Positions 12,569 through 49,013 of a stretch of 64,000 bases of DNA are shown here, in pieces; within the stretch, counting starts at the first letter, position 1; every line of letters starts with the position of its first letter. The position numbers and the translations under genes were made by a program. Origin of the DNA: Candidatus Omnitrophota bacterium (GTDB taxonomy: Bacteria; Omnitrophota; Gorgyraeia; Zapsychrales; JANLHA01). The notes under the pieces are model-generated. The model was not told where the DNA came from, ran no database searches, and saw only the letters and a list, made by a program, of their open reading frames with translations. The stretch is taken from contig JACKFJ010000003.1 in NCBI GenBank assembly GCA_020632535.1, positions 102,166-166,165 of the forward strand, given 5' to 3'.

Positions 12569-12578
12569 AGGAAACACC

Positions 12579-26679: not shown

Positions 26680-26690
26680 ATGAGGGGATA

Positions 26691-28529: not shown

Positions 28530-29255
28530 ATGACAACATTAATAAGAAATCCAGATTATTCAAAAGCCGAATCGTGGAAGATTTTTGACACGATTTATCG
28601 CCGTTATGACTTATTAAATGCCATTTTATCATTTGGCCTCGATAAAAACTGGCGCCACAAGCTGCTCAAATTTGTACCAGCAAAGCCGGATGTTAAACTT
28701 CTTGATCTTGCAACAGGCACCAGCGATGTTGCCATTACTTTGGTACAAAATTGTGACAACATCAAATCGGCTATTGGCATTGATTTATCGGAAAATATGC
28801 TTCATTTGGGACGAGAAAAAATCACAAATCTAAACCTTTCAAACCGTATTTCATTGCAAAAAGGTGATGCAACACAACTGTCATTCTTAAATGACGAATT
28901 TGATATGGCAACCATGTCATTTGGAATTCGCAATGTTGAAAATCCTATGTTTGTCCTTAAAGAAATCTATCGCGTTCTGCGAACCAATGGTCGCGCTGTT
29001 ATCCTTGAATTTTCATTGCCAAAGAACATTGCAATAAAATTCTTTTATTTAATTTACCTAAAAATTTGCGTACCATTACTCGGCGGACTTATTTCCGGAA
29101 ACTTTAAGGCCTATATTTATCTTAACCGCACCATCGAAAAATTCCCGTATGGCGAAATGTTCATCCGCATGATGAAACAATGCGGTTTTAAAAATGTATC
29201 AGCACAATCTTTAATGCTCGGGGTCGCGACAATTTATGTCGGAGAAAAAAGCTAA
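28530..29255 (+). CDS. ubiE: demethylmenaquinone/ubiquinone C-methyltransferase
   Basis: 241 aa. YDLLNAILSFGLDKNWR and the SAM motif LDLATGTSD. Confidence 0.88.
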   Translation: MTTLIRNPDYSKAESWKIFDTIYRRYDLLNAILSFGLDKNWRHKLLKFVPAKPDVKLLDLATGTSDVAITLVQNCDNIKSAIGIDLSENMLHLGREKITNLNLSNRISLQKGDATQLSFLNDEFDMATMSFGIRNVENPMFVLKEIYRVLRTNGRAVILEFSLPKNIAIKFFYLIYLKICVPLLGGLISGNFKAYIYLNRTIEKFPYGEMFIRMMKQCGFKNVSAQSLMLGVATIYVGEKS

Positions 29256-30649
29256 TGACCATGTTATTAACAAAGAATTTTTCATTATCGCAAGCGATAG
29301 AAAAATTAATTCAAGAATTAAACGCGCTTGATATTCAAGGCCGCCTTTCCAGCACAAAAATCCATACCTATCGCGTCAAAGTTTCTGTTGAAGACATTGA
29401 TCTTCTCGCTTGGATTCACGCGCAAGAGAATGCCATCAAGATTTATTGGGAAGATCGCGAAAAAAACTTTGCTGTTGCTGGGATCGGTGCCGCGGATATG
29501 TTAATCGCAAAAACTGGGGAGGATCCATACGAAATTCTTTCCCGTATACAAAAGAATCTATCACCCAATTTCCCCGACCTAAATTATTATGGTGGTTTTT
29601 GTTTCAACTCCAAATTCCCATTACAAGGCGAATGGAAAAACTGGAGTCTCGGGCGATTTGTCTTACCGCTTATCGAAATCCGGAAATCTGGCGCAGGAAC
29701 TATTTTGGCGTGTAATATTTTCTTAAATCGAAACTTTTCCACTTCCGTAAAACTGATCACTTCCGAGCTCAACCGCTTAAGGGAAACTATAAATAAATCG
29801 TCGATAAACCTTCCACAACCTTGGAAACAAACGCATATACCTGATGAGTTGACATGGAAAGCGACTGCCGCACATATTATCAATTCCATTAATGAAACCA
29901 CCCTGCATAAAGTTGTTTTCGCGCGTTCAATCCGTCTCGATTTTAAAGACACGATCAATCCCTTTTTTATCATGTCCCGCTTACGTGAGACCACATCGAA
30001 TTGTTTTTCTTTTATTTTTCAATTTCAAGAGGGGGAAATTTTTCTTGGTGCCTCACCGGAACGACTCTATCAACGCACAGAAGAGAACATTGAAACGGAA
30101 GCTGTCGCGGGCACTCGACCACGCGGACAAGAACAGAAAGAAGATGCGTCATTACAAAGCGAACTTTTGTCCTCAGCAAAGGACAATAAGGAACAAAATT
30201 TTGTAGTCGATATGATTCATAAAAATCTCTTGCCTTTATGCACGTCGCTAAATGCTGATACCAAACCTTCACTATTAAACTGGAGCGCCGGACATCATCT
30301 GATTACGCGCTTTAATGGTCGTTTAAAAAAGAATATTAAAGATAAAATCTTACTTTCTAATCTTCATCCCACTGCGGCAATTGCGGGAACACCTGCCGCC
30401 TTAGCAGTTAAAACGATCACGCAAATGGAGGTTTTTGACCGCGGGTGGTATTCGGGACCCATCGGGTACGTCGGTTTTAAAACAAGTGAATTTGCTGTCG
30501 CGATACGCTCGGCACTCATGAAGGGTAATAGCCTTCATCTCTACGCTGGTGCCGGATTAATTCGTGAATCTTCACCTGACGCTGAATGGGAAGAAACTGA
30601 AAACAAACTTACTAATTTTTTGAAGGTCTTTAATGCCACTGAATCTTAA
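29255..30649 (+). CDS. menF: isochorismate synthase
   Basis: 464 aa. Chorismate-binding-enzyme C-terminal motifs: AGTRPRG, LHPTAAIAGTP, AVAIRSA. Confidence 0.88.
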   Translation: MTMLLTKNFSLSQAIEKLIQELNALDIQGRLSSTKIHTYRVKVSVEDIDLLAWIHAQENAIKIYWEDREKNFAVAGIGAADMLIAKTGEDPYEILSRIQKNLSPNFPDLNYYGGFCFNSKFPLQGEWKNWSLGRFVLPLIEIRKSGAGTILACNIFLNRNFSTSVKLITSELNRLRETINKSSINLPQPWKQTHIPDELTWKATAAHIINSINETTLHKVVFARSIRLDFKDTINPFFIMSRLRETTSNCFSFIFQFQEGEIFLGASPERLYQRTEENIETEAVAGTRPRGQEQKEDASLQSELLSSAKDNKEQNFVVDMIHKNLLPLCTSLNADTKPSLLNWSAGHHLITRFNGRLKKNIKDKILLSNLHPTAAIAGTPAALAVKTITQMEVFDRGWYSGPIGYVGFKTSEFAVAIRSALMKGNSLHLYAGAGLIRESSPDAEWEETENKLTNFLKVFNATES

Positions 30650-32417
30650 ATCTGCCAATATCAATAGTCTTTGGGCTGACCTTATCATTGAGGAACTATT
30701 CCGTTGTGGGGTTGAATATTTTTGTGTCGCTCCGGGTTCACGCAGCGCGCCGCTGGCTATTGCGATTTCACAAAACAAAGCCGTAAAATCTGTTATTCAT
30801 TTTGATGAAAGAGGATTAGGTTTCCATGCTCTTGGCCTTACCGCCGCAACATTAAGGCCCACGGTTGTAATAACCACGTCGGGAACAGCTGCAGCTAATC
30901 TTTTTCCGAGCATCATTGAAGCCAGCAAAAAGAAATTACCCTTGATCATCATGACGGCTGACCGTCCTCCGGAATTACGCTTTACAGGTGCCAATCAAAC
31001 CATTGATCAAATTAAGATTTTTGGAGATCATGTGCGTTTTTTCTTCGACGTCCCATGTCCAACTTTGGAAATTGCCCCTGAAGTGATCTTGACAACAATT
31101 AATCAGAGTATCGCGCGCGCTAAAGGCGAACTGCCTGGACCAATTCATCTAAATTGCATGTTCCGTGAGCCATTAGTACAGACTTCGTCCACTAAACAAA
31201 ATTTTACCGATTATCTCAAATCGATCAAAAACTGGCAAAACACAACCGAACCATATACCACATACATTAAGGGAGCATTAAACGTTTCACCGGAAATGAT
31301 CAGCAAAACCGCCCAAATCGTAAAAACCGCAAAGAGCGGAATTATCGCGGTAGGGAAGATTAGCGGAAAAAATGATGAAGCGGCTGTGCTTGCTTTGGCC
31401 GAAAAACTCAATTGGCCTATCTTTGCCGATGTGACGTCTGGAATACGCTTAGGACATGACCAGACCGGTATTATTCATCATTTTGATCATATTTTACATG
31501 CCCTTGAGGATGACATTGTTGCAAAAAACTTTTCGGTCGACTGTGTTTTACATTTGGGCGGACGCTTAACCTCGAACCGTTGGTACAACTTCATAAAAAT
31601 TGTACGCCCCCACAACTACGTTATGGTTTTAAAGCATCCTTTACGCAATGATCCAAATCATATTGTTACATTGCGTTTACAAAGTGACATTAAAGATTTC
31701 TGTGATCGATTAGCACCGCAAGTCAGCGCAAAATCCAAATCGAGTCTTTTGAAAATTTTGCAAAAAACAGACAAAATCTGTGAGACGGCTATTCAAAACT
31801 ATTTTGAAGCAGATCAAGATCAATTATCCGAACCATCTACAATACGCTGCGTTACCGAATTAGTTCCTGAGAATTCCGGACTTTTTATTGGCAACAGTAT
31901 GCCTATCCGCGATTTTAATATGTTTTCTGCGAATACTGGAAAACGAGTTCGGGTTTCCGCAAACCGTGGTGCCAGCGGAATCGATGGGAACATTGCAACC
32001 GCAGCAGGGTTCGCGAAAGGACTGCAAGCGCCTTGCACCACAGTTATCGGTGACATCGCATTCTTGCATGACATTAATTCATTAAATTTATTGCAGGATG
32101 TGAACTATCCCTTCATAATCATCGTCATTAACAATAACGGTGGGGCCATATTTTCATTCTTGCCCGTTGCCAATGTGAAAAACGGTTTCGATAAATTTTT
32201 TACCACACCTCACAACCTAACCTTTGAACAAGCAGCAAAATTATTCAATCTTTCGTATAACTCCGTTACGACAAAAACGGAGCTAAAAAAGGCGTATTTG
32301 TTAGCGATCGACAGGCCCAATGCCACCATAATTGAAGTTCATTCCGACCCAACGAATAACCTTAAATATCATCGCGACATTGAAGCTAAGATTCATTTAT
32401 TCGCTAAAAAATCCTAA
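30633..32417 (+). CDS. menD: SEPHCHC synthase (2-succinyl-5-enolpyruvyl-6-hydroxy-3-cyclohexene-1-carboxylate synthase)
   Basis: 594 aa, TPP enzyme. Contains NSLWADLIIEEL..GVEYFCVAPGSRSAPL and TADRPPELR. It overlaps menF by 17 nt. Confidence 0.9.
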   Translation: MPLNLKSANINSLWADLIIEELFRCGVEYFCVAPGSRSAPLAIAISQNKAVKSVIHFDERGLGFHALGLTAATLRPTVVITTSGTAAANLFPSIIEASKKKLPLIIMTADRPPELRFTGANQTIDQIKIFGDHVRFFFDVPCPTLEIAPEVILTTINQSIARAKGELPGPIHLNCMFREPLVQTSSTKQNFTDYLKSIKNWQNTTEPYTTYIKGALNVSPEMISKTAQIVKTAKSGIIAVGKISGKNDEAAVLALAEKLNWPIFADVTSGIRLGHDQTGIIHHFDHILHALEDDIVAKNFSVDCVLHLGGRLTSNRWYNFIKIVRPHNYVMVLKHPLRNDPNHIVTLRLQSDIKDFCDRLAPQVSAKSKSSLLKILQKTDKICETAIQNYFEADQDQLSEPSTIRCVTELVPENSGLFIGNSMPIRDFNMFSANTGKRVRVSANRGASGIDGNIATAAGFAKGLQAPCTTVIGDIAFLHDINSLNLLQDVNYPFIIIVINNNGGAIFSFLPVANVKNGFDKFFTTPHNLTFEQAAKLFNLSYNSVTTKTELKKAYLLAIDRPNATIIEVHSDPTNNLKYHRDIEAKIHLFAKKS

Positions 32418-32707
32418 ATTTTTGACTGTGTCAAGAGTTTTATTTTAAATCTAATAATACCGCACAAGCTCGCAAGATGTTTATTTGCTTGAACTTACAG
32501 ATCTGACAGTAGATTCTTTGGATTTTTAAAGCCTATTTTTGAATATTTTTTACGACAAATTTGCTTTTTCGATTTTCATAGTGCATACTTCAACTATAAT
32601 TTTTTACTGTTCTCTTCCCAGTTGTGTATCCATCATTGAAAACTTAAAGCATTTGTTCAATTTACGATTCACACTCTAAAAAATCGTGTGAAAGACAATA
32701 TATCATT

Positions 32708-34372
32708 ATGCTGACAATCGAAAAGAAAAATAAAGAACAAAAGCCGAAAATCGGTGAGATCCTTTTAGCAAATGGCCTAATCCAACATCCGCAATTGGTA
32801 CGCGCGCTGGAAAGCCAAAAGCATAATCCTCGAAAGCTTGGGGAAGTTTTAGTTGAAATGGGGTTCATTGAAGAAGTCAAGCTTGTTGAAGTACTCGCGG
32901 ACATATTCCGCTTACCCTATATAAAGTTGAATGATGTTGTTATTGACGATGCCGCTTTGCAGTTAGTTTCATCCGAATACATGCAAAGCAATAAAGTTTT
33001 ACCGATCGCCCTTAAAGACGGCGTTTTGACAATCGCAATGCGTAATCCACTTGATGTTAGTCTTTTGCAGGAGCTGCAAATCAAGTGTGGTTGTCCGATT
33101 TATCCGGTTATGGCCAGCACAACAGAGATCAATGAACATCTTCCCAAATTTGTTGCTCATGTTCAGCGGATCAAAGAGCAGGCACAGGAAAATCGCATCA
33201 AGGAACAATCGTCACCAATGGTTCGGCTTGTCAATGATTTGCTCGAGCAGGCGATCGCGGAAAAAGTTTCGGACATCCATTTACAACCGCAAAAAAAGCA
33301 TTTACGTGTCCGTTTTCGCATTGACGGCATACTTTATGACAAGACGCCAATCGAAAAAATTTTAGAACGCCAAGTTCTTTCTCGTTTTAAAGTTATGGCC
33401 GGTATGGATGTGGCTGATAATCGCAAACCGCAGGACGGCCGCGCGATGGTCACATTTCGAGGACAGAATTACGATATTCGCTTATCGACAATTCCTGATA
33501 TTCTCGGTGAAAATCTTGTCATGCGAATTTTGACAAAGGATTATTTTAATAAAGACATGTCGGCGCTTGGCTTTGATAAAGTCGAAATCGATTTGATCAA
33601 TAAGATTGTTGAACGTCCGCATGGTCTTATTTTGACAACTGGGCCAACAGGCGCAGGAAAAACGACTACATTGTATTCAATGATGGAACGTTTAAACCAG
33701 CCCGGCCGCAACATCATCACGGTCGAAGATCCTGTTGAATATGAAATGACCGGGATCACTCAAACCGCGATCAATGATTTTATCGGGTATCGATTCGCAA
33801 CCGCGATCAGACACATTTTGCGTCATGATCCGGACATCATCATGATCGGCGAAATCCGTGACGTTGAGACAGCTGAAATCGCGATTCGTGCCGCTCTGAC
33901 AGGCCATTTGGTATTATCGACAATGCACACGAATACCGCGGCGGGCGCGATCACCAGACTTTTGGAAATGGACATTGAACCTTTCCTTATTAGTACAGCC
34001 GTCAGCGCGGTTTTTGCACAACGTCTTGCGCGCGTTCTTTGTCCACATTGTAAAGAGGAATATACGCCGACACCTGAGGTACAAAAAAGTTTAAAAGCCT
34101 TTTATCCTGATGGTACGGATTTGATTTTAGCAAAACCTGAAGGTTGCGTCCGATGTTTAAACACCGGATTCGCCGGCCGAACAGGAATTTATGAAATTCT
34201 TGATGTGGATGATGATTTTCGCTCTTTAATATTAAAAAGAGCCAGCGAAAAGGAAATGATCGCGGCCGCGAATAAAAACGGAATGAACAATTTGCGCGCG
34301 TCAGGAATTAAAAAAACAATTAAACAGATAACCAGTTTAGAAGAAATTATAAGAATTACCGCACACGAATAA
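32708..34372 (+). CDS. type II secretion/type IV pilus assembly ATPase (GspE/PilB family) with an MshEN-like N-domain
   Basis: 554 aa. Walker A GPTGAGKTT, Walker B DPDIIMIGEIRD, His box LSTMHTN, and a tetra-Cys site CPHC...CVRC. The N-terminus has a tandem 24-aa motif (see findings). Confidence 0.9.
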   Translation: MLTIEKKNKEQKPKIGEILLANGLIQHPQLVRALESQKHNPRKLGEVLVEMGFIEEVKLVEVLADIFRLPYIKLNDVVIDDAALQLVSSEYMQSNKVLPIALKDGVLTIAMRNPLDVSLLQELQIKCGCPIYPVMASTTEINEHLPKFVAHVQRIKEQAQENRIKEQSSPMVRLVNDLLEQAIAEKVSDIHLQPQKKHLRVRFRIDGILYDKTPIEKILERQVLSRFKVMAGMDVADNRKPQDGRAMVTFRGQNYDIRLSTIPDILGENLVMRILTKDYFNKDMSALGFDKVEIDLINKIVERPHGLILTTGPTGAGKTTTLYSMMERLNQPGRNIITVEDPVEYEMTGITQTAINDFIGYRFATAIRHILRHDPDIIMIGEIRDVETAEIAIRAALTGHLVLSTMHTNTAAGAITRLLEMDIEPFLISTAVSAVFAQRLARVLCPHCKEEYTPTPEVQKSLKAFYPDGTDLILAKPEGCVRCLNTGFAGRTGIYEILDVDDDFRSLILKRASEKEMIAAANKNGMNNLRASGIKKTIKQITSLEEIIRITAHE

Positions 34373-34385
34373 TGAAAATTAAAAA

Positions 34386-35588
34386 ATGCCAAATTATTTA
34401 TATAAACTCAAAGACGAAAACGGTAAAAACATTTATGGCTACGGGGAGGCTCGAGACACTCGTGAATTAAAATCCCGTCTTCGGGATTTCGGCGGATACT
34501 TTATCTCCGCGAAGATCTTTGATATCAAGAATCTCAAAAAACAAAAAGTCACATTCGACGCCTTGCTCATGTTCACGCACCGCCTGACTTCTCTTATTGA
34601 GTCCGGCATTCCGATTCTCTCAGCTCTTAACATCCTTTGGAAACAAAGCGAAGAAAAAACGATGCAGTTAGTCATTAGTCGCATGTATCGTCACGTCGAA
34701 GACGGCGAGACGATTTCAGCCGCGCTTGACGAGTTCCCTAATATTTTTCCTGTTCTATATCGATCTCTTATTCACGTTGCGGAAAAAACCGGTTCCATGG
34801 TTTTTATTTTACGTAAGATTGTCGAGCATCTTGAGTATCAAAGACAATTTATCACCCGCGTAAAAAAGGCAATGATGTACCCGATGATCGTTATGGGTTT
34901 GACAATTTTAGTTTTAATTGGGATGTTCACATTCGTCGTCCCGACATTTCAAAAAGTTCTTGTCGGCCTCAATGTCGAACTGCCGCTGATTACCCGAGTC
35001 GTTCTGGGTATTTCACAAATTATGCGCAATCCATTTTTTATTGTATTTGTAATATTTGCCATTGTGGGTCTTATCGTGACATACCGTGAAATGCGCAAAA
35101 TACCAGAAATTGGTTATAAGATTGATAAATACATTTTGTCTTTCCCGTTTTTTGGCAACCTTTTCTTAACAATGGCAATCAGCCGATTTATCAACTCATT
35201 ACGAGTTTTGATCGGTTCTGGTTTACCAATTGTCGAAGGTTTAGATGTTGCCAAATCAACCGTCACAAATAAATATTTGGTTAAGCATATAACCGATGTT
35301 AAGGAAGGTGTTAAGCAAGGCCATTCGCTCTATGAAACGTTCCGCGATACCAAAGTCTTTCCCATTCTCTTGGTGGAAATGCTCGGAATTGGTGAAAAAG
35401 TCGGAACCGTAACAAAAATTCTAGAAAGTTTAGCGCATCATTTTGATGAGGAAGTTGATTATAAGCTCAACAAGTTCTTAACAATCATTGATCCAATGCT
35501 TATTGTCATCGTAGGGACAATCATTATCTTTACAATGTTGGCCATTTATATGCCGATTTTCTCAATTTGGAATAAATTGGCTTCTTAA
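34386..35588 (+). CDS. type II secretion/type IV pilus platform protein (GspF/PilC family)
   Basis: 400 aa. Two repeated cytoplasmic T2SSF-like halves with 3 hydrophobic segments. Confidence 0.9.
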   Translation: MPNYLYKLKDENGKNIYGYGEARDTRELKSRLRDFGGYFISAKIFDIKNLKKQKVTFDALLMFTHRLTSLIESGIPILSALNILWKQSEEKTMQLVISRMYRHVEDGETISAALDEFPNIFPVLYRSLIHVAEKTGSMVFILRKIVEHLEYQRQFITRVKKAMMYPMIVMGLTILVLIGMFTFVVPTFQKVLVGLNVELPLITRVVLGISQIMRNPFFIVFVIFAIVGLIVTYREMRKIPEIGYKIDKYILSFPFFGNLFLTMAISRFINSLRVLIGSGLPIVEGLDVAKSTVTNKYLVKHITDVKEGVKQGHSLYETFRDTKVFPILLVEMLGIGEKVGTVTKILESLAHHFDEEVDYKLNKFLTIIDPMLIVIVGTIIIFTMLAIYMPIFSIWNKLAS

Positions 35589-35704
35589 AAAGGAGGGAAG
35601 AGACGAGTTAAAAAGTACATTCGTAACACAAGAGTAAAAATTATCGTACGAAAACAATAAACAATAATAAACAACAAAAAACACAAACAAGGGAGAATCA
35701 AAAA

Positions 35705-36016
35705 ATGAACGTCAAAACTAACAAAAAAGGTTTCACACTTACCGAAATCCTCATCGTCTTGGTCATTGCTGGTATTTTGCTCGCCTTGATCTTACCGAAC
35801 AGTTTAAAAGCTGTCCAACGCGGTAATGTGACTGCGAACAAGTCTGACATTCAGTCTTGCAGTACTGCAGCTCTTATCTGCTATTCCGAAAATGCGAATT
35901 CATGGGCAAGCTGCGATACCGTTGCTGAACTTGTATCTGGTGACTACTTAAAATCTGCACCTGCAGGCGTCACGATGGCACAAGATCAAACAACTGGTGG
36001 ATATTCTTGCCAATAA
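35705..36016 (+). CDS. short prepilin (probable major pilin/pseudopilin), class III signal peptide
   Basis: 103 aa. MNVKTNKKG|FTLTEILIVLVIAGILLALILP has Gly at -1, Phe at +1 and Glu at +5. The mature globular part has four Cys. AAGGGAG SD upstream. Confidence 0.85.
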   Translation: MNVKTNKKGFTLTEILIVLVIAGILLALILPNSLKAVQRGNVTANKSDIQSCSTAALICYSENANSWASCDTVAELVSGDYLKSAPAGVTMAQDQTTGGYSCQ

Positions 36017-36034
36017 TTTAACAAACCCCTTTTC

Positions 36035-36068
36035 GTATCGAGTGCGGGCATAAGCTCGCACTCGATAC
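36035..36068 (+). other. strong stem-loop immediately downstream of the pilin gene
   Basis: GTATCGAGTGCG-ggcataagct-CGCACTCGATAC is a 12-bp perfect stem, extendable to about 15 bp with an ATAA loop. No U-tract follows. Confidence 0.6.
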
Positions 36069-36086
36069 CAAAAGATAAAGGATAAT

Positions 36087-40357: not shown

Positions 40358-40368
40358 AAAGTCATTGT

Positions 40369-40390
40369 TTCCTCCCACAATGGGGAGGAA
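40369..40390 (+). other. anti-SD/SD-type hairpin between the secretin and the large pilin gene
   Basis: TTCCTCCC-acaatg-GGGAGGAA is a perfect 8-bp stem, 12 nt after the secretin stop and 21 nt before the ATG at 40411. Confidence 0.5.
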
Positions 40391-40410
40391 TTAATGCTAC
40401 GATAAATTTC

Positions 40411-42537
40411 ATGAATCCAAAAAGAATATCTGGATTTACTCTGGTTGAAGCTTTAACTGGAATCGTGGTGATTGCCGCAATCAGTACCGCAAGTTGGTTT
40501 GCCGTCAGTACACTGTTTCGTGGCGAACAATTGACGCGCAATCGTACCGTCGCGATCAATCTTCTGCAAAAAAGCCAAGAAGAAATCCGCAATGCATCTT
40601 TAACTTTTTACGACACATTACAAAACTGTCAATTCCCAGGCCCGGCATTTGATGCCAATATCAATATTAATTGTGGTTTGCAAGCTTTAAATACATATTT
40701 TACCGGATACACCCGCAGTGTAAGTGTGACCCCCCATTCTGGCAGTACCGAAATCAAAAAGGCGACCATCACTGTCAACTGGACCGACCAAGGACAAACA
40801 TTATCATTGTATTCTGCCGTTCTTTTGGCGCGTCCGCCAGATCCATTACCGGGCAATATTATCGGTATCGTTCGTTCTAGTGGAACCGGAAATCCTTTAA
40901 TTAATGGTGTATCAATAAAAGTCGAGCTTGTTGGGGGTACTGTATCCCGCACAACAACGTCAAAAAATACTTTGGGTGCGAAAAATGAAAGTTTTGATTT
41001 CTTTGATGCCTCAACCGGCGCGTTTGTTCTTCCCGTTGGCACATGGCGATTAACTGCCACTCATCCAAGCTATTATGCTTACACCCATAGCGCTGATATT
41101 ACCGTGACATCAAACGCGGAAACACGCGTTGATTTTTCCATGGATCCCAAACCACAAAACGCCACAGTCAAAGTTAGATTAATCAATGGTATAACAGGAG
41201 CGCCGCTCAATAACTTTCAATATGGGACTTATTATATTCTTGATGACTATGCGACAACAAACACAATTGTCGCTTCTGCAGGAAGTACAACCGCGGGTGA
41301 TCATACGATTACTTTTAACGATAGCAATCCAAAAAGTTTTACCGTTAATACATACAATGCCTTTAAGTCAGGACAGGCCGGAAAACCAACCTGTTTATCA
41401 TATGCTTACAATTATAATGGCCAATCCACTGCTCATCTGCTTGATGACAATCTCACGACAACATGCTCGAATCCTTACAATGGTTCAAGTACCAGTGACC
41501 GCATTACGGTAAATTCCGGAGATAATAATGTTGTGGTCAAAATTCCTATTTATAATGTCCCAACAGCGACCGTCCGCGGAAAAGTTACTGATCAAAGCGG
41601 TGTACCAATCGTCGGCGCAACCCTTTACGCCAAATGGCCATCCAGCGATTTATGGATTCAAAACGGCGCTTATCAAACCGCGACAACGAATGCGCAAGGC
41701 GAATATTCATATCGCGTTCCTGCCACACAAGAGATGCTGCCGAATAATAATTCCGGAGCTTTACAAGTTTATGCATACAAATCCATGCCAATCAATGGAT
41801 GTTGTGATTCCATACAATACGTCGATCGCTATAGCACGACCGTACCTGTTACGAACCTCTTTGAAGGCGCCTTGATTACAGATGTCAATTTGACCATTAA
41901 CAGCGGTGGGAGAATCAATTGCGGCAATGTTCAGGGCAATATCAAAGATGGCGCTTCCGGCGCGGGACTCAATAGTGCGAGTGTTTCTGTGCAAGGAGTT
42001 GGAAACACCACCGCAACAGGAGGAGATTATATTTATCAATGTCCTAGCACCGGATATAGATTACCTGCTGGTCTCGCCAGATTTTATGCTTCAAAATCAA
42101 ATTATTATTCTTATGATAGCAACGGAAATAATTGGTATTCCCCAGCGGCCGGTGTCAACATCCAAGCCGACACGATGGTGGATTATTCCGCTAAACTCTG
42201 GCCTGTTGGAACAGGGACTGTCATCGTGACTGTCCTTGATGAAGGATCTGATTTTCCGATTGCAAATATCAATTTAAAACTTACTAACTATAATAGCGGA
42301 CAGATAAGTTTAACGACAGACAGTTCGGGTATCGCGACATTTAACAATACTTTAGAAACATGGCCACCGGTTGGCTTGCCGAATGATGCGTATTATTCAC
42401 GAACACCGCGTGGGCACTCTTTAGTTGCGACCGATCCGTCAGGATTTTATCCCTCAGCGTCACTTAGTATTCCAACTTTAGAAAAAGATGGCACTCTCAA
42501 TGTTACGATAAAACTTGCGCCAGCTGGAGGGACTTAA
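40411..42537 (+). CDS. giant modular pilin: a class III signal/pilin module followed by about five beta-sandwich (CarboxypepD_reg-like) repeats
   Basis: 708 aa. MNPKRISG|FTLVEALTGIVVIAAIS. A pilin-like domain runs to about aa 145. It is followed by repeated segments starting IIGIVRSSGTGNPLINGVSIKV, ATVKVRLINGITGAPL, ATVRGKVTDQSGVPIVGATLYA, GNVQGNIKDGASGAGLNSASVSV and GTVIVTVLDEGSDFPIANINLKL. Confidence 0.8.
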   Translation: MNPKRISGFTLVEALTGIVVIAAISTASWFAVSTLFRGEQLTRNRTVAINLLQKSQEEIRNASLTFYDTLQNCQFPGPAFDANININCGLQALNTYFTGYTRSVSVTPHSGSTEIKKATITVNWTDQGQTLSLYSAVLLARPPDPLPGNIIGIVRSSGTGNPLINGVSIKVELVGGTVSRTTTSKNTLGAKNESFDFFDASTGAFVLPVGTWRLTATHPSYYAYTHSADITVTSNAETRVDFSMDPKPQNATVKVRLINGITGAPLNNFQYGTYYILDDYATTNTIVASAGSTTAGDHTITFNDSNPKSFTVNTYNAFKSGQAGKPTCLSYAYNYNGQSTAHLLDDNLTTTCSNPYNGSSTSDRITVNSGDNNVVVKIPIYNVPTATVRGKVTDQSGVPIVGATLYAKWPSSDLWIQNGAYQTATTNAQGEYSYRVPATQEMLPNNNSGALQVYAYKSMPINGCCDSIQYVDRYSTTVPVTNLFEGALITDVNLTINSGGRINCGNVQGNIKDGASGAGLNSASVSVQGVGNTTATGGDYIYQCPSTGYRLPAGLARFYASKSNYYSYDSNGNNWYSPAAGVNIQADTMVDYSAKLWPVGTGTVIVTVLDEGSDFPIANINLKLTNYNSGQISLTTDSSGIATFNNTLETWPPVGLPNDAYYSRTPRGHSLVATDPSGFYPSASLSIPTLEKDGTLNVTIKLAPAGGT

Positions 42538-42538
42538 C

Positions 42539-43009
42539 ATGCAGCGCAATAAGCACGCGTTTACCCTCACCGAACTTGTGGTTGTGCTCGCCATCTTTAG
42601 CGTCTTTATCGGTTTATTTAGTACCGTCTTTGTGCATAATTGGGGAGCATATGAAGAACGTATCAAACGCGCGAATCTTTGGGGGGAAGCTAATCAATGT
42701 TTTGAACAAATGTCATTGGATGGACGCAATGCCCGCTTAATCAACGTTGCGACAACCGGCACGGACAAAACCGCAACCTTTTATAGTGGCTCCGGTGGTA
42801 CCGATATCGTATATACCATCGCCAATACCGGACAGGTCAGCCGTACCCAAGACAATACTGTAAAAATATTTACTACTCATGCGGATTTTGCCAACTCCAG
42901 TTTTACAAAAAATGGGAAAAATTTAATTGTCAATTTCCGCCTGCTGGAAACTATTTTTACACGCACTCTTCACGTTGATATGACAATGGAAATTTTACCG
43001 AGAAATTAA
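42539..43009 (+). CDS. minor pilin/pseudopilin
   Basis: The ATG at 42539 follows GGAGGG (ORF track starts at 42515). MQRNKHA|FTLTELVVVLAIFSVFIGL has Ala rather than Gly at -1 and Glu at +5. 156 aa. Confidence 0.75.
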   Translation: MQRNKHAFTLTELVVVLAIFSVFIGLFSTVFVHNWGAYEERIKRANLWGEANQCFEQMSLDGRNARLINVATTGTDKTATFYSGSGGTDIVYTIANTGQVSRTQDNTVKIFTTHADFANSSFTKNGKNLIVNFRLLETIFTRTLHVDMTMEILPRN

Positions 43010-43012
43010 AAA

Positions 43013-44281
43013 ATGACACATTATTCATTACAAAAAATACACAGTAAACGCGGCCAAATATTATTATTCAGCCTTGTTGTCATGGTTTTTCTTTCCACGC
43101 TCCTTGGCGCCGCCATGCTTCGCTCCGATGTCCAAGTCAAGGAAATCATCAATCGCAAACGATTACAAGAAGCATTTTATGCCGCAGAAACCGGCATTGA
43201 TACCGCGATTTATAACTTGCGTCAAAATTCAGCGTGGAAACCAGGACAAAACGGCGTTGCCGCAATTGTCGATCAACCCTTTAACATTACCGTCGCTGGA
43301 AGCACAACAACAATCGGTTACTATTCCATTACGGTTATTGATGCTGCCCAATTCAATGGCTGGGATAGTCGTTGGATTACGGCACAGGGCAAGGATCGTG
43401 AAGGCATCATCACACGGACGATCAAGGCTCGCGTTATCGTTGAAAGTCCGACACGATTTTTAATTTCCACATTAGGACCTTTGCATATGACTAGCGGATC
43501 GCAATTGAATGCGGATATTTTAGCAAAAGATGTTTATTTTGATGTCAATGCTTCATTGCCTTCACCGCAAAATGAAATCAATGTCAACGGCAACGTGCTT
43601 TATATCAATAGCAAAACCGGTGAAACAAATCCCGCCGTAATTTTTGGCTCCGGCAAAACAATTACAAAATCACCGTCGATCACATTCGCCGGTGTCGATC
43701 TTAATCGCTATGAACAACTTTCTCAAGATTTACAAACCCAAAATCTTGGATACCATTCAACTGGTGATTTAACAGTGAACCTCGATAATCTTTCAGCATT
43801 TAACCAAAATCCCGGAAGTTCATTTGAACCCAAAATCATTTATGCCAAAGGCAATATCTATCTTTCCGGTGAATATGACAATTCCGTTCTCATTGTTGCT
43901 GGAGGGAATGTGTATGTTAATGGCAGTATCATTGCAAACTCATCCGTGCAACCCGTCCCGCAACTTGGGATATTTGCGAAAGGCGACGTCATTATTCCCG
44001 AATCAACAATGGCCACAGGTGATTTAAACATTGAAGGTTTTATTCTCGCTGATGGCGGAACTCCCGGCAGTAAGGGCGCTTTTCTGGCAGAAGGAGCCAA
44101 ATATTCTAAAGCCACTTTAAATTTCAAAGGGTCTATTTCCGTCAGAGGAACCGGAACAAACGCTGTTGATTTGAATGTTTTTAAAAACCGCAATTATGAT
44201 TTCAACTCTGCTTTAAGTAATAACCGCACAATTCCCTTTATTCCTTTTATTGTCAATACCGTCCTGTGGCAGGAAATTTAA
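43013..44281 (+). CDS. PilX_N-like pilus-associated protein with a repetitive, probably beta-helical C-terminal region
   Basis: 422 aa. The N-terminus RGQILLFSLVVMVFLSTLLGAAMLRS...AFYAAETGIDTAIYNL resembles the PilX N-terminal domain (no Glu at +5). C-terminal repeats include GNVLYINS, GNIYLSGEYDNSVLIVAGGNVYVNGSI and GDVIIPES..GDLNIEGFILADGG. Confidence 0.6.
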   Translation: MTHYSLQKIHSKRGQILLFSLVVMVFLSTLLGAAMLRSDVQVKEIINRKRLQEAFYAAETGIDTAIYNLRQNSAWKPGQNGVAAIVDQPFNITVAGSTTTIGYYSITVIDAAQFNGWDSRWITAQGKDREGIITRTIKARVIVESPTRFLISTLGPLHMTSGSQLNADILAKDVYFDVNASLPSPQNEINVNGNVLYINSKTGETNPAVIFGSGKTITKSPSITFAGVDLNRYEQLSQDLQTQNLGYHSTGDLTVNLDNLSAFNQNPGSSFEPKIIYAKGNIYLSGEYDNSVLIVAGGNVYVNGSIIANSSVQPVPQLGIFAKGDVIIPESTMATGDLNIEGFILADGGTPGSKGAFLAEGAKYSKATLNFKGSISVRGTGTNAVDLNVFKNRNYDFNSALSNNRTIPFIPFIVNTVLWQEI

Positions 44282-44416
44282 TAGGGCAAATGAATCCTGC
44301 TGCGCTCATCAAGTAAGCTTCGCAGAATGATTTACCTTTTTCCTATAAAAACCAAGGAGAAAGGCAAATAACTTTCGCTTGGCAAGCGAGAATTTTATTG
44401 ATATATTTGTTTCACT

Positions 44417-45241
44417 ATGAAAATAAAAATCAAATGGATTAATCACGGAAATTTTACGGATATTAAATATCAAAAAACACAGGGGATCGCAAAAATTACG
44501 ATCAACCGGCCACAAGTCCGCAACGCTTTTCGACCATTAACCATTATCGAAATTTCATCAGCGTTGAGTGACAGCCGTGACGATGAAAAAATCGGCGTCA
44601 TTATTCTGACTGGCGAAGGCAAAGAAGCGTTTTGTTCCGGCGGCGATCAAAAAATCCGCGGCAATGCTGGTTACAAAGATGAAAATGGCATTCACCGTTT
44701 AAACGTTTTAGATCTCCAGCGCCAAATTCGCACATGTCCCAAACCGATTGTCGCGATGGTCGCGGGTTATGCCATCGGTGGTGGACAAATTCTACAAATG
44801 CTTTGTGATTTGACGATTGCGGCCGACAACGCGATTTTCGGGCAAACTGGTCCCAAAGTTGGTTCTTTTGATGGTGGTTATGGGTCCAGCTATATGGCTC
44901 GAATCGTTGGACAAAAGAAAGCCCGCGAAATCTGGTTTCTCTGCCGCCAGTATAATGCCAAAGAAGCGCTCGCTATGGGATTGGTAAATACCGTCGTCCC
45001 TTACAAAAATCTCGAAAGCGAAACAGTCCAATGGTGTCGTGAAATTTTAGCAAATTCGCCAATGGCAATTCGTTGCCTTAAGGCCAGCCTCAACGCGGAT
45101 TGTGATGGTCAAGCAGGCTTGCAAGAACTTGCTGGCAATGCGACCATGCTTTTTTATATGACCGAAGAAGGACAAGAAGGACGCAATGCGTTCTTAGAAA
45201 AGCGTAAACCTGACTTTTCTAAGTTTCCCAAAAGGCCGTAA
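44417..45241 (+). CDS. menB: 1,4-dihydroxy-2-naphthoyl-CoA synthase
   Basis: 274 aa, crotonase fold. Contains [27 protein letters not shown]. Confidence 0.93.
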
Positions 45242-45286
45242 AAAGCGTTTGCCGCAAGAACGAAACTCGTTACAAAACTTAATAAA

Positions 45287-46186
45287 ATGAAAATAAGCTC
45301 TTTAAAATTTTGGCTCATGGCCTGTCGACCCAAAACGTTACCGGCCGCAGTTGCGCCTGTGCTTTTGGGGACCGCGATCGCGCTTGGTGATGGCGGCATG
45401 CACTGGCCAAGTGCCGCGCTGGCTTTTCTGGGAGCAATCGCCATTCAAATCGGCACAAATCTTGCAAATGATTATTATGATTTTAAAAAAGGAACCGATA
45501 CCGCGGAACGAACCGGGCCAGTCCGCGTAACGCAAGCGGGATTGATTTCACCCGCGTCTGTACGCTTAGGATTCATTTTTACATTTGCAATCGCGGCCGT
45601 AATCGCGTTTCAACTGTCACTCCGAGGAGGATGGCCGATCCTACTCATTGGCGCCACATCAATCGCCGCCGGAATTTTGTATACCGCCGGACCAAAGCCT
45701 TTGGGTTATAACGGACTTGGTGAACTTTTTGTGTTTATTTTCTTTGGACCCGTTGCCGTCGCCGGAACATACTTTGTGCAAACACGGGAAATCAATCCCG
45801 CCGTTATTCTCGCCGGCGTGGCGCCCGGTTTAATATCCGCGGCAATTTTAGTCGTCAATAATTTGCGTGATATCGAAACTGATCGTAAAGCAAACAAGCG
45901 CACTTTAGCAGTTCGTTTCGGACCTGCGTTTACGCAAGCACAATATTTTATCTTTCTCTGCGCGGCCGCGTTTATGCCGATGATCATTTATGCGGTCATT
46001 CAAGACCGTATTCAAATTTTTATCAGCTCGATCACTTTATTTTTTGCGATACCAGCGATTCGTGCTGTTTTCAGTAAAACAGACGGCCCATCTTTGAATC
46101 AGGCGCTGGCTCACACAGGAATCCTTTTAATTATCTACTGCGTACTTTTTTCCATAGGATGGGTTTATGCGGATTTGCGATTTTAA
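45287..46186 (+). CDS. menA: 1,4-dihydroxy-2-naphthoate polyprenyltransferase
   Basis: 299 aa, polytopic UbiA-family protein. Contains NDYYDFKKGTD and NNLRDIETDR. Confidence 0.9.
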   Translation: MKISSLKFWLMACRPKTLPAAVAPVLLGTAIALGDGGMHWPSAALAFLGAIAIQIGTNLANDYYDFKKGTDTAERTGPVRVTQAGLISPASVRLGFIFTFAIAAVIAFQLSLRGGWPILLIGATSIAAGILYTAGPKPLGYNGLGELFVFIFFGPVAVAGTYFVQTREINPAVILAGVAPGLISAAILVVNNLRDIETDRKANKRTLAVRFGPAFTQAQYFIFLCAAAFMPMIIYAVIQDRIQIFISSITLFFAIPAIRAVFSKTDGPSLNQALAHTGILLIIYCVLFSIGWVYADLRF

Positions 46187-47258
46187 AATTTTTAATTATC
46201 ACGTACCCCTGTCGCGCGAGCTTCCCATTGCTGGCGCCGCAATCAAGCAAAGGGAAGGCTTCATTCTTAAACTATCGGATGAAAGCGGAAACACAGGCTT
46301 TGGTGAAACCGCGCCTTTGCACGGCGTTAGCACCGAAATGTCTGATGTTGTATTAATGCAACTCAAACAATTGCGCGACCGCTTAAACGGCCAAATGATT
46401 CCATCGCATATCGGATTAAAGAATGTCAAATTCAGTGCTTGGTTGGAGAACATGCCATTGTCTCCATCCGTTCATTTTGGTCTCGAAACAGCAATACTTT
46501 CTTTAATCGCCGCCAATACAAAAAAGTATTTAGCTCACTTACTCAACGAAAATTATCAAGAAACAATACCGATCAACGGCCTTTTACAAGGTCCTCGCGA
46601 ATCAATTTTATCGGAAGCCGAAGCATTACTTGAACAAGGGTATAAAACTTTAAAAGTAAAAGTTGGCCACGCTAAAATTCATGAGGACATTAATACCGTT
46701 AACGCTTTGACAAAACTCATTAATAACCGCGCGATTCTTCGACTTGACGCGAACAGAGCATGGTCACTAGAACAGGCTTTGGAATTTTCAAAAGCGATTG
46801 AATTTGCTGTCATTGAATACATTGAAGAACCATTAAAAGATTTTTCTAAAATCTCTGAATTTTATGAAGAAACATTAATACCCGTCGCTATTGACGAATC
46901 ACTCAAAGAACACAGTCTGCGTGAAATCAAATCTCTGGATGGACTCGAAGTTGTTATTTTGAAACCCACCATTCTTGGCGGATTTGAAAAAATCGCCCAA
47001 ATGACGCAGGAAGCACACAGTTATGGATTACGAACCGTAATCACATCATCCTTTGAAACCGGAATTGGCCTGCGCGCTTTGGCTAATCTCGCGGCATCCT
47101 TTTCCAAGCATATCCCCGTTGGGCTCGATACTGCCAAATGGCTAATCAAGGACACGGTGACGCCGCATCTAAAAACAGAACGCGGACGGTTAAACATTGA
47201 AAACTGCCAATTGAATAATCTGCACTTGGATACAGAGCAAATCCATGAATTGCATTGA
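46167..47258 (+). CDS. menC: o-succinylbenzoate synthase (enolase superfamily)
   Basis: 363 aa. Contains KVKVG, LRLDANRAW, IEEP, AIDES. It overlaps menA by 20 nt. Confidence 0.85.
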   Translation: MRICDFKIFNYHVPLSRELPIAGAAIKQREGFILKLSDESGNTGFGETAPLHGVSTEMSDVVLMQLKQLRDRLNGQMIPSHIGLKNVKFSAWLENMPLSPSVHFGLETAILSLIAANTKKYLAHLLNENYQETIPINGLLQGPRESILSEAEALLEQGYKTLKVKVGHAKIHEDINTVNALTKLINNRAILRLDANRAWSLEQALEFSKAIEFAVIEYIEEPLKDFSKISEFYEETLIPVAIDESLKEHSLREIKSLDGLEVVILKPTILGGFEKIAQMTQEAHSYGLRTVITSSFETGIGLRALANLAASFSKHIPVGLDTAKWLIKDTVTPHLKTERGRLNIENCQLNNLHLDTEQIHELH

Positions 47259-47282
47259 CCCCGATTCGTTTTTTATACACAA

Positions 47283-48629
47283 ATGATTCAACTCAAAAAA
47301 ATATCCTGCCCGATCGCAGTTTGCAATTCACGCACTCCTTGTGCCATCGCGCTGATTAGTAAATCAAGGACATTAACATATCGCCAATTGCACGAACAAA
47401 TCCAATCCACACAATCTGATTTAATTAACAAAGGTGTCCGTCGTGGAACAAAAGTTGCCATTACAAGTGCCAATTCTCCCGAATATGTCGTTTTACTTTT
47501 TGCTTTATGGCGCATCGGCGCCGTGGCGTGTCTTTTGAGTCCGCGAATACCGGCCTTACAAATAAAAAAACAAATTCGACAGTTAGGCTGCAGTACAATA
47601 ATTTCTCCGAAAGAGATTGCTTCGTCGCTACCGCTCCTCGCAACGGGAAAAAATATGGGACTGTCCCTATTTCTCGATGCACCTGCAACGATCATGTTGA
47701 CGTCCGGCAGTTCTGGAAATCCCAAAGCTGTTGTACATTCCGTCGGAAATCATTACTACAACGCGAAAGGATCAAATGAAAATATTCCCGTTGTCAAAGG
47801 CGACCGCTGGCTTTTGTCGTTACCTTTGTATCACGTCAGCGGCTTAAGCATTATATGGCGCTGTGTTTTAGGTGGAGGGACCATCGTTTTTGAACAACAC
47901 TCCGGAATCACACATATGTCTCTGGTTACAACGCAATTGCGACGATTTTTAAAAAGAAAAGCGAATATCAAAATTTTAAAATCCTTAAAAGCCATCTTAC
48001 TCGGCGGTGGACCGATTCCTCAAGAGCTCATCAAGACCATCACCACATTAAAATTGCCGGTTTTTTTAACATACGGCTTAACAGAAATGACGTCGCAAGT
48101 CGCAACAAGTCACAAAACACCACAAGGAAAAATTAAGACACTCAAATACCGTCACATAAAGATTTCAAAAACCAATGAAATTCTTGTCAAAGGCAAAACA
48201 TTATTCAAAGGATATTTGCAAAATGGAAAAGTTGCAAAAGCTGTCAATCGTGAAGGTTGGTTTCCAACGGGCGACGTGGGGGAGATAAATCAAAAGACCG
48301 GATTAAGAATATTGGGTCGCAAAGACAATATGTTTATTTCAGGTGGTGAAAATATATATCCGGAAGAAATTGAAAAGGCATTTTTAAATTGTGGTGGTAT
48401 TGACGAAGCGATCATCGTCCCAGTTAAGAATCGCGAATTTGGATTTCGACCGGTTGCGTTTGTGCGGTTTAAAAATAATAAACGTATTGCAATGCAAAAT
48501 TTAATTCCAAAACTCACAGCAACATTGCCAAACTTCAAAATTCCTGACCAAATCTATGAATTTCCCCGCGAATATTCCCCAAATGGAATCAAAGTCAATC
48601 GACAACTCTTAATCAAACTACTTTCCTAA
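47283..48629 (+). CDS. menE: o-succinylbenzoate-CoA ligase
   Basis: 448 aa. The AMP-binding motif LTSGSSGNPKAV, plus YGLTE and GDVG. Confidence 0.85.
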   Translation: MIQLKKISCPIAVCNSRTPCAIALISKSRTLTYRQLHEQIQSTQSDLINKGVRRGTKVAITSANSPEYVVLLFALWRIGAVACLLSPRIPALQIKKQIRQLGCSTIISPKEIASSLPLLATGKNMGLSLFLDAPATIMLTSGSSGNPKAVVHSVGNHYYNAKGSNENIPVVKGDRWLLSLPLYHVSGLSIIWRCVLGGGTIVFEQHSGITHMSLVTTQLRRFLKRKANIKILKSLKAILLGGGPIPQELIKTITTLKLPVFLTYGLTEMTSQVATSHKTPQGKIKTLKYRHIKISKTNEILVKGKTLFKGYLQNGKVAKAVNREGWFPTGDVGEINQKTGLRILGRKDNMFISGGENIYPEEIEKAFLNCGGIDEAIIVPVKNREFGFRPVAFVRFKNNKRIAMQNLIPKLTATLPNFKIPDQIYEFPREYSPNGIKVNRQLLIKLLS

Positions 48630-49013
48630 AGCTTTTCGCATTTCCTTTGGCAAAGGGATCTTTTTCCCAGTCTTTTTCGAAATAGTGACATGAACGGTTT
48701 TGGCAGTTCCGACCAAAATATTGCTATTCTTCAAAAGCTGATAACTAAACGAAAATGATGTCTCACCAATATGACTGACACTCACTTTAATTGTCAAACG
48801 ATCGCCAACAAAAAGCGGTTTTTTATAATCACTCTCTGCGTGAACAATCGGAAGGAAGTAACTTTTTTCCCGCAACATGACCGAAAAACCAATTCCGCGA
48901 CTATCGAGCAATTCTTCATACGCATCATGAATCAATTTGAATTGCTGACTAAAAAACAATAGCCCCGCGGCATCCGTTTCGTGAAGTTTGATTGTCGTTT
49001 TGTATGTAAACAT
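48618..49013 (-). CDS. hotdog-fold (4HBT-type) thioesterase, candidate DHNA-CoA thioesterase
   Basis: 131 aa. The ETDAAGLLFFSQ pattern is typical of 4HBT thioesterases. It is convergent with menE and overlaps it by 12 nt. The functional assignment comes from context. Confidence 0.65.
   Translation of the reverse strand: MFTYKTTIKLHETDAAGLLFFSQQFKLIHDAYEELLDSRGIGFSVMLREKSYFLPIVHAESDYKKPLFVGDRLTIKVSVSHIGETSFSFSYQLLKNSNILVGTAKTVHVTISKKTGKKIPLPKEMRKALGK

Follow-up and report, generated by a model that had tools for sequence, protein, structure and literature searches.

An old insertion, in all probability, of a native type IV filament cassette between menD and menB in one clade of Omnitrophota

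Why should the genes of one biosynthetic pathway lie in two blocks on a chromosome, with the genes of a surface filament between them? The question is posed by a 64-kb stretch of DNA from a metagenome-assembled genome (MAG) of Candidatus Omnitrophota (the window; all coordinates given here are window positions unless a locus of a relative is named), in which the menaquinone (men) genes are divided between menD and menB by ten genes resembling those of type IV pili and type II secretion systems (T2SS). A first-pass annotation of this sequence had proposed either that an ancestral men operon was interrupted by the pilus locus or that the two loci are co-regulated. The comparative evidence assembled here (contiguity of the operon in outgroups, restriction of the split arrangement to a single clade and the occurrence of the same cassette elsewhere in the phylum) backs the first of these proposals. 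We consider it highly probable that the cassette entered the menD|menB slot of an ancestral men operon and was thereafter inherited vertically. The event is real, inherited and a fairly ordinary rearrangement, and it involves neither a mobile element nor a new system.

Every open reading frame (ORF) listed previously was confirmed at its coordinates, with the men and pilus genes all on the + strand. The layout of the locus is as follows:

28530-29255, + strand: ubiE/menG, demethylmenaquinone methyltransferase, first gene of the upstream men half (TIGR01934, 237.9 bits against a cut-off of 158)
29255-30649, + strand: menF, isochorismate synthase (TIGR00543, 337.9 bits against 225)
30633-32417, + strand: menD, 2-succinyl-5-enolpyruvyl-6-hydroxy-3-cyclohexene-1-carboxylate (SEPHCHC) synthase, full length, 594 aa, last gene before the insert (TIGR00173, 450.5 bits against 244)
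32418-32707, no strand: upstream junction spacer, 290 bp, GC 0.29 (window 0.418)
32708-44281, + strand: the ten-gene pilus/T2SS-like cassette, 11,574 bp
44282-44416, no strand: downstream junction spacer, 135 bp, GC 0.37
44417-45241, + strand: menB, 1,4-dihydroxy-2-naphthoyl-CoA (DHNA-CoA) synthase (NF005637, 515 bits against 380)
45287-46186, + strand: menA, DHNA polyprenyltransferase (NF004751, 340.8 bits against 264)
46167-47258, + strand: menC, o-succinylbenzoate synthase (TIGR01927, 214.9 bits against 131)
47283-48629, + strand: menE, o-succinylbenzoate-CoA ligase (TIGR01923, 386.4 bits against 330)
48618-49013, - strand: hotdog-fold thioesterase of the 4HBT/YbgC type, probable DHNA-CoA hydrolase, convergent and overlapping the 3' end of menE by 12 nt

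The two halves are tightly packed on the same strand, as first described: upstream, ubiE and menF share 1 nt and menF and menD overlap by 17 nt; downstream, a 45-nt gap (menB-menA) is followed by a 20-nt overlap (menA/menC) and a 23-nt gap (menC-menE). It is likewise borne out that nothing intervenes between the halves except the AT-rich 290-bp spacer, the 11.6-kb cluster and the 135-bp spacer, and in all 17 genes (7 men and 10 cassette) are co-oriented. The seven men proteins (7/7) exceed the NCBIfam curated cut-offs and form the classical o-succinylbenzoate (OSB) set of MenF, MenD, MenC, MenE, MenB, MenA and UbiE/MenG. Since all seven genes are full length the pathway is presumably functional, and the set in the window is presumably complete, though split, apart from menH. 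A search of the operon and the window for menH (tblastn, with the MenH-like protein of L003 as query; L numbers denote loci fetched from relatives) found none, the best E being 0.12 and the rest of the genome lying outside the window; the same query recovers menH within the menD-menB gap of L001, L002, L006 and L008. The convergent gene after menE, earlier a candidate DHNA-CoA thioesterase, is confirmed as a hotdog thioesterase whose closest structure in the PDB is 4K00 (Slr0204, 1,4-dihydroxy-2-naphthoyl-CoA hydrolase; E 6.5e-19), and it scores under the NCBIfam cut-offs for YbgC/FadM and MenI. Zixibacteria, Chlamydiia and relatives within the Omnitrophota carry a homologue in this convergent position behind menE (L002, L005, L014, L021). 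Compared with the classical OSB operon of E. coli (menFDHBCE plus menA and ubiE), the window holds the same enzymes plus this thioesterase; however, ubiE and menA lie within the cluster, menH is not in the window and an 11.6-kb non-men cassette splits menD from menB. The order menF-menD-...-menB agrees with that of the outgroup phyla.

What was the ancestral state of the slot between menD and menB? A scan of genome contigs with MenD returned only relatives from other phyla, at 45% identity or less, and these served as outgroups. Five other phyla keep menD and menB together, whether or not menH stands between them; the order is menD-menH-menB-menA-menC-menE in Desulfobacterales, Zixibacteria, Ignavibacteriales and Bacteroidota, and in Chlamydiia menB follows within ~150 bp of menD with no gene between. 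Among the Omnitrophota, GCA_001805615.1 (L012/L013, MenD 53% identical) reads ubiE-menF-menD-menB-menA-menC, the menD stop overlapping the menB start by 4 bp (ATGA), and its upstream context (FIST-thiC-rSAM-POR-Pyr_redox) matches that of the window. The comparison of menD-menB adjacency in relatives that the first-pass annotation had recommended thus favours insertion. The position of ubiE before menF is also shared by L009, L011, L012, L024, L027, L002 and L008.

The cassette lies within the men operon, with both junctions, in the window, in the JGI contig Ga0163144_10000349 (L009/L014/L017) and in GCA_964474085.1 (L011/L021). The upstream junction alone is seen on the Logan contig L010 and the downstream junction alone, with a partial menB after the cassette, in GCA_964400065.1 (L022); L022 and L023 reach contig ends, and L023 yields no flank information. 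These genomes have a common context, with thiC, a 610-aa minus-strand gene, rSAM, POR and Pyr_redox upstream and AhpC, SOD and RNR downstream. The MenD of the window and its last cassette protein are 100% identical to MCB9771844.1 and MCB9771854.1, respectively (both from a Candidatus Omnitrophota MAG), which share one 299-kb contig, and the same sequences recur on an independent 228.6-kb ENA contig. The closest other MenD relatives are 60-64% identical, followed by a broad cloud at ~50%.

Other Omnitrophota have other contents in this slot. In L024-L026 (MenD 54%) a single PIF1-family helicase gene stands between menD and menB, and in GCA_015233675.1 (L027, MenD 50%) an orthologous PIF1 helicase (54% identity, E 5e-172) follows menD, with no menB nearby. 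The helicase thus directly follows menD in two lineages that are not sisters: in L024 it occupies 11747-13336 (529 aa) and precedes menB, and in L027 it occupies 11797-15045 (1082 aa) and carries DUF3857. In L003, a 'PVC group' MAG with upstream synteny of the Omnitrophota type, menD is followed by a menH-like hydrolase, the operon ends, and menB lies elsewhere. In this region of L003 (11749-21294) the opposite strand further downstream carries PilZ, MsrB and a second T2SS-like set with a PilM-N fusion and a T2SSK-domain protein. Relics of the PIF1 helicase or menH were sought in the spacers at the junctions (window, L017, L011, L021), with chance-level matches only; the strongest, for MenH, fell on the opposite strand of the L017 spacer (E 0.005, from a very small database). 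The first-pass annotation had named menD and menB lying apart in cassette-free relatives as an observation that would tell against an insertion: they are indeed separate in L003 and L027, but contiguous in L012 and the outgroups.

Phylogenetic analysis indicates that the cassette entered the slot once. In a neighbor-joining tree of MenD the four Omnitrophota lineages group together in 200/200 bootstrap replicates and the cassette clade is recovered in 200/200, with the helicase-bearing L024 as its sister in 145/200; a sister grouping of L024 and L027 appears in only 9/200. The relation between the cassette clade and L024 is independently backed, because the 610-aa gene is common to both and is not in L012; it is 77-88% identical in L009, L011 and L024 and absent in L012/L013. 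In the window this ORF (19132-20964, - strand) lies between thiC and a radical-SAM/BATS gene and has no Pfam match; it is of use as a shared derived marker of synteny. A metagenome scan with an alignment of the 708-aa pseudopilin of the cassette returned four loci, a small sample of contexts with three sites outside men operons: with their order unchanged, the ten genes lie beside UvrD/AddB-type genes (L015, GCA_028280285.1), beside Pyr_redox/SmpB/L31/RF1 (L016) and between TPR/DUF6515 and PhoBR-PstB-PhoU (L019). In a tree of the concatenated cassette proteins the men-flanked cassettes are monophyletic among the cassettes from other sites. A single derived insertion in one clade is thus well supported.

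The insertion appears to be old and to have left little trace of how it was made. The cassette has a GC content of 0.416, versus 0.420 and 0.425 in its flanks, and GC at third codon positions (GC3) of 0.401 versus 0.394 and 0.388. Tetranucleotide usage deviates by z < 0.5 in three of its four 5-kb windows; the 40-45 kb window reaches z 2.6, and the window over the RNR housekeeping genes z 2.5. There are no tRNA or tmRNA genes in the 64 kb, no integrase, recombinase or transposase domains in the cassette genes or immediate flanks, and no direct repeats of at least 9 nt between the two junction zones. Terminal inverted repeats were considered and rejected: the sole inverted match, of 12 nt, runs across the start codon of menB, is not kept in relatives and arises in 1.65% of shuffles. 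The cassette thus resembles a genomic island or integrative element as a multi-gene block that splits an operon at the exact junction of a formerly coupled pair; unlike such islands, it lacks an integrase, a tRNA target and direct repeats and does not deviate in composition, and its cargo is a phylum-native machine of housekeeping type. Cassette proteins of the window and L009/L011 are 55-87% identical and flanking genes 55-93%, similar ranges that are consistent with co-inheritance of the cassette and its flanks. The relatives that have the same arrangement and both junction motifs carry flanking housekeeping proteins 72-93% identical to those of the window, which supports an insertion older than the split of these lineages. 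The first-pass annotation, which had itself noticed no integrase, tRNA or direct repeats, had supposed that any insertion was old or was not mediated by a classical element; the negative domain, tRNA and repeat searches, the matching composition and the arrangement common to diverged relatives all agree with it. It had also proposed that indistinguishable composition together with phylum-wide conservation would speak for the contrary: the composition is indeed indistinguishable from the flanks, but the arrangement occurs in one clade only. Relocation within the genome or the phylum by recombination is the best reading of these data.

The junctions themselves suggest how the divided operon may be expressed, with promoters called by their match to a consensus. 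A promoter-like island is conserved ahead of the first cassette gene, which encodes an ATPase, and another ahead of menB; the two point to separate transcript starts for each part. Co-regulation of the two loci, the other reading in the first-pass annotation, may still hold. In the upstream spacer an island of ~49 nt (32556-32604) is kept in L009/L010/L017 and L011, the rest of the spacer having diverged; it carries the invariant TAGTGCATACTTCA at 32579-32592 and a promoter-like TTTTCA-16-TATAAT at 32573-32600. This island is absent before the L019 cassette, where a separate terminator and a TTGACA-type site are found. The downstream spacer is diverged and indel-rich among relatives except for CTTGGCAA-N12-TTGATATATT (44378-44407), made up of TTGGCA (44379-44384), 17 nt and an extended -10, TGnTATATT (-10 at 44402-44407). 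The motif is invariant in the window, L014/L017, L021 and L022, i.e., in all cassette-bearing genomes examined, and is found in none of the other fetched loci, including the unbroken and the helicase-bearing men operons. It looks like a clade-specific extended -10 promoter of the sigma-70 type serving menBACE, and the split halves are probably separately transcribable.

Other features of the spacers are less regular. In the window the promoter-like -10 ends 9 nt before the menB ATG, whereas the relatives have leaders of 28-46 nt with an AAGGA Shine-Dalgarno sequence. This leader is missing from the menB spacer of the window, which has ~90 extra nt that are strongly folded (-33.7 kcal/mol, z -2.8, 0/200 shuffles), and menB may be leaderless here. 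A terminator-like hairpin at 44373-44391 occurs in the window only and not in relatives. A conserved intrinsic terminator after menD was sought and rejected: the window alone has an AU-rich hairpin there, a weak one (z -0.49), and L011 has none. Rfam gave no match over the whole window at the gathering threshold, nor for the upstream spacer at E<=1, and hence no known riboswitch or small RNA in that spacer.

Taken together, these observations suggest the following history. The ancestral order would have been ubiE-menF-menD-(menH)-menB-menA-menC-menE, followed by the convergent DHNA-CoA thioesterase. By parsimony the slot after menD would have held menH, lost it and acquired the PIF1 helicase; the L012 lineage would then have dropped the helicase by deletion, and in the clade of the window the cassette would have taken its place. 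That the helicase occupied the slot immediately before the cassette we propose with moderate confidence. The operon would have been split once, in the common ancestor of this clade, by the arrival of a pre-existing ten-gene cassette, most likely from the same or a closely related genome and presumably by recombination or rearrangement with no classical mobile element. The cassette would have its own conserved control region in the 290-bp spacer, and the menB promoter, to judge by the conservation of its motif, would compensate for the lost translational and transcriptional coupling to menD. The whole arrangement would have been inherited vertically since.

The inserted cassette consists of the following genes:

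32708-34372, + strand: gene 1, assembly ATPase of the GspE/PilB type (PF00437, 425 bits, and PF05157; GspE 531.9 and PilB 529.3 bits, both below cut-off)
34386-35588, + strand: gene 2, GspF/PilC platform protein (PF00482, 177.6 bits; GspF 308.6 bits against a cut-off of 424)
35705-36016, + strand: gene 3, short major (pseudo)pilin of 103 aa (PF07963, TIGR02532)
36087-37586, + strand: gene 4, PilM-PilN fusion of GspL-like architecture (C-terminal PF05137 PilN, weak N-terminal PF11104 PilM_2)
37567-38217, + strand: gene 5, PilO/GspM-like (PF04350, 43.9 bits)
38151-38675, + strand: gene 6, 174 aa, family unassigned, possibly PilP/GspC-like (weak GspC match, 22.3 bits)
38672-40357, + strand: gene 7, outer-membrane secretin, GspD/PilQ-like, with a FecR_C-like N-terminal domain (PF00263, 145.7 bits, PF03958, PF16344)
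40411-42537, + strand: gene 8, giant minor pseudopilin of 708 aa with CarboxypepD_reg domains (PF13620, weak PF07963)
42515-43009, + strand: gene 9, minor pilin of 164 aa (PF07963, TIGR02532)
43013-44281, + strand: gene 10, PilX_N-like minor pilin of 422 aa (some homologues with PF14341), the marker of a family of 41 clusters

The N-terminus of the ATPase (32708-32900) carries an MshE-type motif for binding cyclic di-GMP (c-di-GMP; NF053729, 59.4 bits against a cut-off of 38), which predicts c-di-GMP control of filament assembly. The gene 3 prepilin has the cleavage motif G|FTLTE and a mature length of ~94 aa, with 4 Cys and 5 aromatic residues (~5%). Gene 6 has no Pfam match and keeps its position in every cassette copy; as listed it overlaps the PilO gene by 67 nt (38151-38217), the calls in relatives are 151-159 aa long, and its true start is probably a downstream codon. 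The secretin scores 183.3 bits as GspD and 177.4 as PilQ, both below cut-off. The product of gene 8, in which 8 Cys are invariant in the alignment of relatives, is of unusual size for a minor pseudopilin; with its CarboxypepD_reg (Ig-like) domains it is a protein specific to this Omnitrophota cassette, and it may form a tip adhesin. Every named member of the 41 homologue clusters of gene 10 is from Omnitrophota (in NCBI a PilX N-terminal domain protein or T2SS protein). Neither a prepilin peptidase (peptidase A24, PilD) nor PilT is encoded in the cluster or the 64-kb window, the remaining genome lying outside it. The cassette is a type IV filament system and, from its gene content (GspL-like PilM-N fusion, no PilT), may function in the manner of a T2SS or a non-retractile pilus.

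The cassette shares with the T2SS (Gsp) and type IVa pilus (T4aP, Pil) systems an ATPase, a polytopic platform protein, prepilin-type subunits, PilM/N/O-type (GspL/M-like) proteins and a secretin in one co-oriented cluster. It differs from them in that all components fall below the GspE/F/G/D and PilB/C/Q equivalog cut-offs, with the ATPase scoring about equally as GspE and PilB, and in having features of its own: the PilM-PilN fusion, the 708-aa CarboxypepD_reg pseudopilin and the 422-aa PilX_N-like protein. A canonical T2SS was rejected on the scores (bits/cut-off) GspE 531.9/630, GspF 308.6/424, GspG 39.2/88.9, GspD 183.3/351 and GspC 22.3/101.6, and no cassette protein matched the GspH-K equivalogs above cut-off. 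A canonical T4aP was rejected likewise (PilB 529.3 versus 675.7, PilQ 177.4 versus 284; Pfam domains of PilN and PilO do occur, and the window encodes neither PilT nor PilD). Of the features of the MSHA pilus, the NF053729 c-di-GMP motif scores above cut-off, and the MshL secretin model gives 134.8 bits against 250.2. Conductive e-pilins of the Geobacter type, by the criterion that Walker et al. in 2018 are said to have set, combine a short mature pilin with an aromatic density of ~9% or more; this candidate was also rejected, the cassette pilin being only ~5% aromatic (5 residues in ~94 aa). The cassette is native to Omnitrophota and fits neither the canonical T2SS nor the T4aP model. In the passages of Seymour et al. 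2023 (PMC10066038) drawn on here, T4aP-like clusters are reported from nearly all Omnitrophota genomes and menaquinone pathways from some Velamenicoccia, Zapsychrales especially; T4aP clusters are also described as co-located with unusual type-2/3 F-type ATPases. F-type ATPase genes thus lie beside the T4aP loci of those passages, whereas there are none in the window; the same passages make no mention of a co-location of men and pilus genes.

The surroundings of the locus are ordinary chromosome (aconitase, leuCD-like, ilvD, aroC, znuABC, thiC, POR, AhpC, SOD, RNR, ilvBN and gshAB) with two local peculiarities. A gene pair encoding LemA and an M48-peptidase/zinc-ribbon protein (26122-28436) lies between the Pyr_redox gene and ubiE in the window only; in L009, L011, L012 and L024 Pyr_redox is directly followed by ubiE. 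This pair looks like a second, younger and small insertion beside the men genes. Between the thioesterase and AhpC is a MIP/aquaporin gene (49194-49868), not found at that position in L014 and L021, whose GC3 of 0.48 is the maximum of the window; it is probably a recent acquisition.

Could the arrangement have an origin other than an ordinary insertion followed by descent? Selection might have joined the cassette and menaquinone synthesis as a co-expressed supra-operon, through quinone-dependent disulfide formation (DsbB/VKOR), for example, or through a common signal. The 17 genes on one strand with no conserved terminator after menD, the persistence of the arrangement in at least four genomes while the small nearby insertions (LemA-M48, MIP) vary, the 4 Cys of the pilin and the 8 invariant Cys of the 708-aa pseudopilin would all suit such a linkage, as would Actinomyces oris, in which pilus assembly depends biochemically on menaquinone via oxidative folding (PMC5478893). 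The pili of Actinomyces are, however, sortase-dependent and thus a different machine; elsewhere in the phylum the cassette occurs in three unrelated contexts, none of them linked by theme to quinones or respiration; the slot of the sister lineage holds an unrelated helicase; conserved promoter-like islands stand before both the cassette and menB; and neutral inheritance alone predicts persistence inside one genus- or family-level clade. We regard this linkage as unlikely, and a selected menaquinone-pilus link is speculative. A more elaborate scenario, which seems to us decidedly improbable, would make the gap after menD a recurrent cargo-capture site (for menH, the PIF1 helicase, the cassette or nothing) in which selection has kept the cassette because filament assembly needs the menaquinone pool, via DsbB/VKOR-type folding of the Cys-rich pilins, with the ATPase binding c-di-GMP; the genes from ubiE to menE would then be a 'quinone plus surface filament' supra-operon in ultra-small, possibly host-dependent bacteria.

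It is very improbable that the cassette is a recent or foreign acquisition, an island from outside the phylum whose mobile-element traces have been lost. The placement of an 11.6-kb block precisely between two formerly coupled genes, the AT-rich upstream spacer and the z of 2.6 at 40-45 kb might suggest it, but the cassette is like its flanks in GC, GC3 and most tetranucleotide windows, and the RNR window is equally deviant (z 2.5); integrase, tRNA and direct repeats are lacking, the lone inverted 12-mer is misplaced for a terminal repeat, all named clusters among the 41 of the PilX-like family belong to Omnitrophota, and type IV pilus-like clusters are near-universal in the phylum according to the passages of PMC10066038 cited above. 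We would give scarcely more than passing credence to the reverse polarity, in which the split state is ancestral in these Omnitrophota and L012 became contiguous by losing the cassette. Streamlined genomes often undergo deletions and L012 is weakly placed (80/200), but menD and menB are contiguous in five outgroup phyla, L024 and L027 bracket the cassette clade with no cassette and with a common orthologous helicase, and the 4-bp menD/menB overlap of L012 demands a deletion exact to the base. The confinement of cassette-bearing men operons to a single shallow clade also refutes it. A chimeric contig joining men fragments to an unrelated pilus locus is a natural worry with a metagenome-assembled genome, yet the chance of such an assembly or binning artefact is practically negligible: both junctions recur in assemblies made independently, with different pipelines and from different samples (JGI 106-kb, NCBI 127-kb and 299-kb, ENA 228-kb, Logan), and the junction motifs are conserved despite the divergence of the sequence around them.

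Several observations nonetheless weigh against insertion into an intact operon followed by separate expression of its halves. The polarity relies on few Omnitrophota genomes, direct menD-menB adjacency being found in one lineage only, and that lineage, L012, is placed in the MenD tree with 80/200 support. In the cassette-free L003 and L027 menB is located elsewhere, so break-up of the operon after menD is recurrent and the predecessor state uncertain. Matching composition is equally compatible with a move inside one genome and with an old transfer from one related member of the phylum to another. As to expression, the scan returned 59 promoter-like sites against 45.7 +/- 7.6 in shuffles, a menB promoter at the spacing seen in the window would require a leaderless mRNA, and, as there is no conserved terminator after menD, a single long transcript or read-through from menD may occur.

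The splitting of an operon by an inserted native gene cluster is a type of event already known, and the locus described here is a new instance of it. It is a clean and datable case, in which a coupled operon, with the menD stop over the menB start, was split by a large native cluster with no recognisable mobile element, and it shows the downstream half apparently regaining a promoter. Two small points stand out: the slot that follows menD has varied repeatedly, and a promoter seems to have arisen in front of menB. Unless the link between menaquinone and pilus is functional, the stakes for biology are modest. For annotation the lesson is that a split men pathway can still be complete apart from menH. 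For the phylum, the locus defines a conserved ten-gene type IV filament cassette of the Omnitrophota that moves as a unit, and its arrangement within the men operon is a synteny marker for one clade, which most likely lies, judging from the passages of PMC10066038 drawn on above, within the menaquinone-bearing Velamenicoccia/Zapsychrales.

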